From sequence record KT184314.1: 64,000 nt of DNA. The stretch is one strand, 5' to 3'. Positions 34,646-35,676 of this stretch are shown here, piece after piece. Position 1 is the first letter of the stretch, and each line of letters starts with the position of its first letter. A model generated the notes under the pieces. That model was not told the origin of the DNA. It ran no database searches and saw only the letters and a list, made by a program, of their open reading frames with translations. Made by a program: the position numbers and the translations under genes. The DNA comes from Enterobacteria phage KhF2.

Positions 34646-35233
34646 ATGAAACTGTTAAATATCAAAATCACTGGTACTCGTCCTTTCCTGAGCCACGCTG
34701 ATACGCTGTCAGACCCGTTAAACCCTCTGACAAAATATCACAAGTCTCTGTCCAGTAAACGTAAAAAGACTGACGAAGACTATGCGCTCTTAGCAGAAAG
34801 CCAACTGGTAACCTCTTGTTACTACGATGAGCAGCTAGGTTTTGTTATGAACGGTGAGATGATTGAGGCTTGTATCAAGTCTGGTGCAAAGCTCAACAAA
34901 CTTGGTAAGGTAATTGACCGAGCCATTATGCTGACAGATGTAGTCTTCCCAATGACTATCAAGAACTGTCCAGCAAACCCACAAGAACTTGCTAAGAATC
35001 CAGATTTTATCTATGCTAAATCTGTTAAGATTGGTACAGCACGAGTTATGAGCTACCGTCCAATCTTCCGTGATTGGTCTGTAGAGTTTGGTTTGATGTT
35101 CGATGAAGAGCAAATCACCAAAGAGGAACTTCTGATGGTTCTTGAAAATGCTGGTAACCTTTGTGGTGTAGGTGATTGGCGTCCACGCTTTGGTCGTTTT
35201 TCTGTAGAAGTTATTTCAGAAGGTAACGTTTAA
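34646..35233 (+). CDS. hypothetical protein (first gene of repeat-flanked cassette)
   Basis: ATG 34646 with GGAG upstream; about 195 aa; no motif recognised. Confidence 0.55.
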
Positions 35234-35235
35234 TT

Positions 35236-35676
35236 ATGAATACGAAAGCATTAGCAGCAAAGTTTAGTTACGGTGACACTGTATCACATTCTGAGATGGA
35301 CACCTTCTTAGGTATTGTGAAACCAACTTATCAAGGTGACATTGTTAAGTACGAAGATGAAATGAAGGCTTATGCGCTTACACGTCTAAACCGACTTGAG
35401 AAGTTTATTGAGAAGCTTCTTAAAGAAGAGAAGATTTATCTGGTTGCTTCAATGGGTGTTGGTTATCGTGTGGTTGAACCTAAGCATCAAGCAACTATTG
35501 CAAAACGTAAAATGTCTGGTAAGATTGGTCGTGCTTTAAAGCAAGCCACTCAAGCAATTGAGAATGTGAACACTATGGCACTTAGTCATCAAGAACGTTC
35601 ACGGTTGATTGAACAGCAAAACCATTTAGCTGCTATGAAAGCTAACATTAACAAGCAACGCAGAAAACCTTTCTAA
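35236..35676 (+). CDS. hypothetical protein (second gene of repeat-flanked cassette)
   Basis: 146 aa, SD AAGGTAACG; basic C-terminus. Confidence 0.55.
   Translation: MNTKALAAKFSYGDTVSHSEMDTFLGIVKPTYQGDIVKYEDEMKAYALTRLNRLEKFIEKLLKEEKIYLVASMGVGYRVVEPKHQATIAKRKMSGKIGRALKQATQAIENVNTMALSHQERSRLIEQQNHLAAMKANINKQRRKPF

Follow-up and report, generated by a model that had tools for sequence, protein, structure and literature searches.

A VIPR locus, very probably directed at an E. coli satellite, in Enterobacteria phage KhF2

Positions 34258-35823 of a 64,000-nucleotide stretch of the Enterobacteria phage KhF2 genome (KT184314.1; the whole stretch is referred to here as the window) very probably form a complete VIPR (Viral Interference Programmable Repeat) locus of type II, belonging to the SUSP1 clade, whose most likely role is to silence an Escherichia coli satellite that would otherwise parasitise the phage. 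The discovery of VIPR and 21 cryo-electron microscopy (cryo-EM) structures are described in two bioRxiv preprints, in which the locus of phage SUSP1 is characterised genetically, biochemically and by cryo-EM (10.64898/2026.04.26.720920, 10.64898/2026.04.26.720927; PDB 36pp). A VIPR locus comprises vipr, encoding a minimal RAMP, usually one vap gene, and flanking intergenic vrRNA genes. Each vrRNA is about 100 nt long and consists of 9-16 YNNGG repeats and an invariant tail; within the SUSP1 clade this tail folds into a pseudoknot, and the guides mainly target a satellite phage in E. coli genomes (2026.04.26 preprints).

Every computable defining feature of a type II VIPR locus is present in the window: Vipr, vap1, YNNGG units, a pseudoknot tail, hypervariable NN positions and targets read with a one-base skip. 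Silencing of a satellite is assigned as the function from the complementarity of two guides, vr1 (24/24) and vr3 (18/20, 90%), to one satellite gene. An earlier note on this stretch had put forward a candidate novel two-component system, possibly with an anti-host function. This proposal is superseded on both counts, as the guides are part of the system, a near-identical locus in SUSP1 was published in 2026, and the vr1 and vr3 matches point to a competing satellite, not the host, as the target.

Proteins and guide RNA genes of the locus

Two protein genes lie on the + strand within the locus, and the lengths of about 195 and 146 amino acids (aa) that the earlier note had given for them hold. 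The first open reading frame (ORF1, 34646..35233, 195 aa) encodes a RAMP-family protein, and the second (ORF2, 35236..35676, 146 aa), which starts 3 nt past the ORF1 stop, encodes a Vipr-accessory protein. In the ORF list, ORF1 begins at a GTG and spans 34631-35233; translation from the ATG at 34646, which has GGAG at 34633-34636 before it, yields the 195-aa product, a whole-length match to the solved SUSP1 protein. A sequence search of the PDB returns "SUSP1 Vipr protein" (entry 36pp, E = 8.5e-129) across all 195 residues. ORF1 is identical to SUSP1 Vipr at 192/195 positions (98.5%), the two proteins differing solely around residue 119 and at the C-terminus, and ORF2 is identical to the SUSP1 vap1 product at 145/146 (99.3%). 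Given this near-identity in sequence, ORF1 is vipr and ORF2 is vap1.

Residues listed in the cryo-EM preprint as contacting RNA or DNA (10.64898/2026.04.26.720927) are kept in the window Vipr, namely H17, K33, R39, E71, M72, K82, G87, K88, R138, C173, D177, W178 and R179; the G-loop sequence is present, as is the thumb residue R138. The sole exception among the residues checked is "T175", which reads V. As SUSP1 Vipr differs from the window protein only at the places given above, this mismatch points to the numbering or text of the preprint and not to the phage.

Pfam gives nothing significant for either protein, with one sub-threshold HpHbR match for ORF2, and both belong to PHROG families of unknown function (phrog_4652 and phrog_5926), in line with the earlier remark that neither carries a recognised motif. 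The fold search that the note had proposed for both proteins served as an independent check on the identity of Vipr. An AlphaFold2 model of Vipr (pLDDT 94.8), searched with Foldseek against a PDB copy that pre-dates 36pp, has only RAMPs among its top matches (Csm3, type VII Cas7, Cmr4 and Cas6, with type III/VII effectors leading; E = 7e-5 to 1e-3, probability 1.0, TM-score about 0.5, 10-16% identity). These matches are consistent with a remote RAMP fold for the modelled protein. Vipr is in this respect a RAMP-fold backbone subunit like those of class 1 CRISPR-Cas systems, which is a likeness of fold and not membership of that class. The Vap1 model (pLDDT 96) combines a winged-helix-like N-terminal part with a long helical hairpin; its fold matches are weak and mostly winged-helix, and Vap1 is probably a DNA-binding accessory protein.

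A full HMMER search recovers 234 remote Vap1 homologs of 145-200 aa, and a word-based search returns only 3 matches, all of them clade members. In five of six loci whose Vipr is just 37-40% identical to that of the window, a Vap1 family member lies 3' of vipr, and these loci also carry YNNGG arrays. Because the linkage is kept in such distant loci, the association of vipr, vap1 and vrRNA is, by sequence comparison, an old one.

The G+T-rich elements that the earlier note described as brackets around the two genes are real, occur on both sides and far exceed chance. They are not passive, however, but are the guide RNA genes of the system, two of them preceding the protein genes and one following, with tracts of 11-12 pentamers. 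Perfect YNNGG runs are found at 35737-35791 (11/11 units) and 34478-34537 (10/12), the only two such runs on either strand of the 64 kb, and a third, more degenerate tract occupies 34350-34409; the preprints used at least four YNNGG units as their threshold for detection. Each unit is built from a leader box, a pentamer tract and a 32-nt tail, and all three lie on the + strand. vrRNA-1 (vr1, 34350..34441) has 12 pentamers followed by a tail at 34410-34441 (GTAGTTAGTCTCAGCTACATTAAAATGAGACT), and vrRNA-2 (vr2, 34478..34569) likewise has 12, with its tail at 34538-34569 (GTGGATGGTAGTAGCCACGTTAAAAATCTACC). vrRNA-3 (vr3, 35737..35823), located after the terminator, has 11 pentamers and a tail at 35792-35823 (AAGGATGGCAGTAGCCTTATAAAAAATCTGCC).

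The tails carry a clear RNA-level signature. Fifteen distinct tails align without gaps and conform to an H-type pseudoknot, in which stem S1 joins columns 1-4 with 15-18 and stem S2 joins columns 7-13 with 26-32. S1 is 100% and S2 85% paired, with compensatory changes in 9/11 pairs. Pairing is found in 90% of cells, compared with 29-42% when the 3' partners are slid, and 0/500 shuffles reach the observed covariation score. A permissive Rfam search of 34200-35950 matched no family, there being no Rfam model for these RNAs. A CRISPR array, with direct repeats of 25-40 nt and unique spacers, was not found either, as a repeat search over 28-42 kb returned only leader boxes and pentamer tracts.

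The guides were compared with those of 18 loci from IMG/VR that encode a Vipr 97-100% identical to that of the window and carry two to five vrRNA units each. Leaders and tails hardly change across these loci, in contrast to the hypervariable NN positions, and 51 distinct guides are present in the 19 loci with Vipr at least 97% identical. The vr2 guide is identical to that of the second vrRNA of one related locus (L009). vr3 is chimeric: it shares pentamers 1-10 with the first downstream vrRNA in four related loci (L014, L016, L017 and L020, at ~2581), but its tail with the last downstream unit. From sequence, this arrangement implies a deletion of the intervening units, which would have cost one matched unit of complementarity.

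Targets in the yecE satellites and competing readings

For the searches, each guide was written in the published format for queries (NN x NN x ...), with a skip of 1 nt between dinucleotides (the vr2 query is nCTnCGnCCnTCnAGnTGnTTnTTnCTnCTnAA). In a scan of IMG/VR, vr1 produces a single exact 22-base gapped match, which lies within a satellite island contig and reaches 24/24 once the first unit is counted in (satellite L031, 12008-12042(-); natural site GAGTTAAAGATGTCACCAAAGGAAATCATCTTTGT). The site spans codons 57-68 of a 250-aa ORF, in frame, and every skipped base falls at a wobble position. The targeted gene is on the - strand (L031 11458-12210; L030 10510-11214), and its 250-aa product in L031 has no Pfam or PHROG match. 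One homolog of this protein is labelled 'transposase' in RefSeq.

A wider target set supports the same assignment; it comprises 54 satellite loci, or 749 kb, drawn from IMG/VR, metagenomes and genomes. With a skip of 1, vr1 reaches 22, 21 or 20/22 in nine of these loci, and skips of 0, 2 or 3 never exceed 18. For vr3, too, it is only with this skip that the null maximum, 16, is exceeded, the scores being 18/20 in three satellites (L030 11271-11299(+), L044 and L079) and 17/20 in one more. Its exact gapped pattern has no match in IMG/VR, and the site is found only with mismatches allowed in the satellites. The vr3 site (ACAGCCTACGAACTTAGAAGAGACTTAAA in its natural form) is located about 55-85 nt upstream of the homolog of the vr1-targeted ORF, and an unrecombined relative of the vr3 guide matches the satellite at 21/22. 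Within the window itself no self-target is present, the best self-matches being at most 17/24.

Extending the test to the clade, 27/51 guides reach an NN match of at least 85% in the satellites with a skip of 1, compared with 0/51 with skips of 0, 2 and 3. This independently replicates, by computation, both the skip rule and the finding that the satellite is the main target.

The second pentamer of vr1 (34355-34359) carries TT, and its counterpart in two related loci (L007 and L015) carries CT; the satellites correspondingly vary between TTAAAG and CTAAAG at the target (L031 12008-12039; L071 5922-5953), and the CT version is perfect on the CTAAAG satellites. Because vr1 combines perfect complementarity with a guide difference that tracks the target variant, it is apparently under selection despite its degenerate units, and the pattern looks like guide-target co-evolution.

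Other candidate targets were considered for vr2 and rejected. Relaxed nine-unit scans gave six matches, the best of which (21/22 in L085 and 20/22 in L089) fall in environmental viral contig sequence with no similarity to any deposited phage, are not wobble-phased and are judged to be chance. A ten-unit genome scan gave one match, in Simplicispira, which is an unrelated host and, by our estimate, the number expected by chance.

The targeted island is ~12 kb long and encodes a serine recombinase, a Dit-like baseplate protein, a tape-measure protein and several small ORFs. When the window locus was compared by BLAST with 5,426 complete E. coli genomes, 128 chromosomes matched, always over a short stretch that lacks annotation and resembles the tail of vr2; in both of the two regions that were fetched, the island is inserted in yecE. 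E. coli EC12 (NZ_CP070229) and JML285 (NZ_AP024114) are examples of strains with the yecE satellite. The satellite Dit-like protein is 78.5% identical to the product of the window ORF at 48699-49508, and the satellite tape-measure protein is 29% identical to that of the phage. These figures agree with those reported for SUSP1 and its satellite (discovery preprint, fig. S14).

By analogy with SUSP1, vrRNAs of ~90-100 nt, with YNNGG pentamers capped by a 3' pseudoknot, would act as the scaffold on which Vipr, a minimal Cas7-like RAMP, polymerises with one protomer per pentamer. Each protomer would sequester a GGY and present the variable NN dinucleotide. The dinucleotides would then pair with double-stranded DNA (dsDNA), skipping every third target base, and the resulting R-loop triplex would block transcription, with Vap1 predicted to enhance silencing. 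For SUSP1, co-purification of vrRNA with Vipr and repression of matched dsDNA have been demonstrated, and small RNA sequencing shows that the vrRNAs are transcribed (2026.04.26 preprints).

Several points weigh against satellite silencing as the function of this locus. GG is degenerate in 6/12 vr1 units, and perturbed GGY motifs abolish silencing (bioRxiv 2026.04.26 VIPR preprint), a source that also reports natural vrRNAs to be often internally degenerate. Recombination has left vr3 with reduced complementarity. For vr2, an exact full-length gapped match is absent from viral, genome and metagenome collections, and the guide remains at noise level (16/22) in the 54 satellite loci. The function is carried over to KhF2 by analogy with SUSP1, both VIPR source papers are preprints (10.64898/2026.04.26.720920,.720927), and the view that the satellite parasitises KhF2 is drawn solely from the shared tail genes.

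Much of this would also be expected of a VIPR locus in decay, with intact proteins and a guide set that is partly or wholly non-functional in this phage. Half of the vr1 units lack GG, four collection scans gave no credible vr2 match in addition to its noise-level result in the satellites, the 18/20 of vr3 falls short of the 21/22 of the unrecombined guide in relatives, and relatives without vipr-vap1 retain just a solo vrRNA without a target. However, both ORFs are intact, the functional residues of Vipr are conserved, and the experimentally expressed vrRNAs of SUSP1 also hold degenerate units (2026.04.26 preprints; window comparison). The full complementarity of vr1, together with a TT/CT difference that follows the target variant, is expected only under selection on the guide. 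We therefore regard decay as improbable, while considering it the most serious of the alternatives.

A novel two-protein module acting on the host, such as a toxin-antitoxin or anti-defence pair, with the repeats as passive recombination sites, insulators or terminators, would fit two proteins without a Pfam domain or PHROG function and a cassette that is patchy among Felixounaviruses. It is, however, hard to reconcile with an ORF1 product near-identical to a structurally solved RNA-guided RAMP, with repeats that show the exact vrRNA architecture and RNA-level covariation in their tails, or with the complementarity of two repeats to satellite DNA, which is seen only when the published pairing rule is applied, and is thus very unlikely. 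DNA-level signals unrelated to the ORFs, such as origin iterons or G-quadruplexes, are suggested by the G-rich, 5-nt period and the site among genes for replication and nucleotide metabolism (ligase, dihydrofolate reductase, thymidylate synthase), yet merit equally little credence, as variation falls precisely on the NN of YNNGG, where it spells out matches to foreign DNA, vipr homologs in distant viruses are accompanied by such elements, and both the compensatory tail changes and the SUSP1 small RNA sequencing indicate a folded, transcribed RNA.

Transcription signals, neighbourhood and distribution

The VIPR locus is framed by plausible transcription signals. A sigma-70-like promoter sequence, TTGACA-16-TATACT (34258..34285, + strand, 11/12 match), lies between the ligase gene and the first vrRNA and is kept in SUSP1 and in phage JH2, which lacks the cassette; we infer a promoter role for it. 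The promoter-like motif that the earlier note placed directly before ORF1 does exist as TTTACA-18-TAAAGT (34601-34630, +), but it is weaker (9/12) and overlaps a leader-like box. The downstream terminator noted earlier is also borne out: an intrinsic-terminator-like hairpin with a T-run (35688..35710, +) ends the vipr-vap1 transcription unit, its stem-loop AGCCTCTTCGGAGGCT at 35688-35703 beginning 12 nt past the ORF2 stop and being followed by CCTTTTT, and the sequence is identical in SUSP1. Raw counts show no excess, with 17 promoter-like hits in the region against 16.6 in shuffled sequence and 4 terminator-like hits against 3.4, so what speaks for these signals is where they lie and their conservation in SUSP1 and JH2. 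The promoter 5' of vr1 also has an 8-bp inverted repeat across its -10 element (GGTGAGTA at 34274-34281 and TACTCACC at 34306-34313, separated by a loop of 24 nt), a repeat that SUSP1 and JH2 share.

The leader boxes, all on the + strand, occur in two variants, and the same box type precedes vrRNAs in the 18 related loci. Box 1 (GAGTCTTTTAAAAGGGTTTTTAAGTGATG, 34326..34354) precedes vrRNA-1, box 2 (AAGGTCTTTAAACAGGGTCTTTTAATAAGG, 34453..34482) precedes vrRNA-2 and box 4 (AAGGTCTTTAAGAGGGTCTTTTAATGAGG, 35713..35741) precedes vrRNA-3. Leader-like box 3 (GAGTCTTCTGTTGAGGGTTCTTTACAA, 34581..34607), with which the weak promoter-like motif overlaps, lies immediately 5' of vipr and is kept there in SUSP1. 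A role of the box as a general phage promoter is ruled out, the motif being confined to the locus; one match elsewhere, at 17283 with 2 mismatches, is compatible with chance.

The locus, which is on the + strand, is flanked on its 5' side by an ATP-dependent DNA ligase gene (33150-34250) and on its 3' side by a gene for a 127-aa protein (35916-36299), with dihydrofolate reductase and thymidylate synthase genes further downstream. Over 1.8 kb around the locus, Enterobacteria phage KhF1, classified as Felixounavirus, is 99.3% identical, and ~230 Felix O1-like phages of Escherichia, Salmonella, Shigella and Citrobacter match the same segment. By this measure the phage carrying the window is a Felixounavirus, 99% identical to KhF1. 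Positions 35843-36873 of the KhF1 record (KT184313.1) correspond to 34646-35676 of the window and carry no gene annotation over vipr and vap1; a protein-level survey, for example BLASTp against NR, would consequently miss the VIPR locus.

Two features of the window lie apart from these genes. A 73-nt segment occurs in three direct copies at 41083-41821, 67-79% identical and spaced 327-339 nt apart, and is probably a repeated domain inside a coding region. GC skew is positive solely from ~28 to 40 kb and negative elsewhere, which fits a + strand block of replication, nucleotide metabolism and the VIPR locus between - strand blocks.

The earlier note had described a self-contained unit of accessory character and had recommended a presence/absence comparison among relatives, and the outcome agrees with a non-essential conflict module. 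The vipr-vap1 cassette occurs in 117 of the 259 phage records that match the neighbourhood, a patchy distribution from which, judged on sequence, it is dispensable. JH2 (L083, about 650-850, compared with window 34251-35915) lacks vipr-vap1 and retains the same promoter and one vrRNA unit between the ligase and the downstream gene. This solo vrRNA has a type-B leader, 11 pentamers and a last-unit tail with a 1-nt loop deletion, and its guide reaches 15/20 in the satellites, which is noise. The cassette appears to have been lost through recombination between flanking vrRNA units.

Some of the satellites, those in E. coli yecE, carry a vrRNA of their own, with 14 YNNGG units (L029 14948-15049; L030 14984-15085; L047 20709-20810) and a tail identical or near-identical to that of the window vr2; its best skip-1 matches, 23/28, are borderline. 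No vipr or vap1 was found by tblastn in the 54 satellite loci, so the satellite guides would need the Vipr of a helper phage, onto which they could load in trans. The chimeric vr3, the solo unit in cassette-less relatives and the satellite vrRNAs with a phage-type tail together suggest, as a tentative and on balance doubtful reading, that the guide sets of the clade evolve by modular recombination of vrRNA units (leader, tract and tail) without a dedicated acquisition machine. In that case, phages and their satellites would exchange and pirate each other's VIPR guide sets during co-infection.

Comparison with known systems

The kind of locus described here is already known, and it raises no new question beyond the 2026 preprints. 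Our analysis adds its guide set and targets, the chimeric vr3, the guide-target co-variation, indications that vrRNA units recombine as modules, and the solo and satellite vrRNAs that occur without Vipr. The window represents a second natural VIPR host phage, from a different genus. With this assignment, phrog_4652, phrog_5926 and the surrounding "repeat regions" can now be named, and the cassette is present in at least 117 deposited Felix O1-like genomes.

The closest counterpart is the SUSP1 locus. Both share the order of ligase, vrRNA, vipr, vap1, vrRNAs and a homolog of the 127-aa gene, together with the leader boxes, three of the tail types, the terminator, the promoter and the target satellite family. 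In contrast to KhF2, a KhF1-like Felixounavirus, SUSP1 is a Suspvirus; its four vrRNAs are arranged as 1 + 3, whereas the window has three as 2 + 1 with a chimeric vr3, and all three guides of the window differ from the four of SUSP1. The VIPR locus of a Pseudomonas fulva prophage, as described in the preprints, likewise has Vipr, vap1, a YNNGG vrRNA array and the same pairing rule. That prophage is temperate, however, and its system targets regulators of resident prophages, not a satellite.

VIPR is a recently described form of RNA-guided DNA recognition, with a gapped code that a 20-kDa RAMP reads, and is proposed to be older than CRISPR. VIPR shares with the class 1 CRISPR RAMPs (Cas7, Csm3 and Cmr4) an RRM-based RAMP fold with a G-rich loop and thumb, and a helical filament on guide RNA with periodic base flipping. 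Unlike those systems, the VIPR guide is non-contiguous, two of every five RNA bases reading two of every three DNA bases, and the target dsDNA is silenced, not cleaved. No cas genes are apparent among the annotated neighbours of the locus or the Pfam matches of the scanned proteins, a result obtained with no dedicated cas1/cas2 search.

In its biological setting, the locus also resembles that of the vibriophage ICP1, which carries a type I-F CRISPR-Cas system with spacer acquisition and DNA degradation directed at the PLE satellite. Both are RNA-guided systems of a lytic phage, and the KhF2 guides, like those of ICP1, would be directed at a parasitic satellite in the host chromosome. In contrast to the ICP1 system, the locus of KhF2 has one small RAMP, without nuclease or adaptation genes, and would act by repression.

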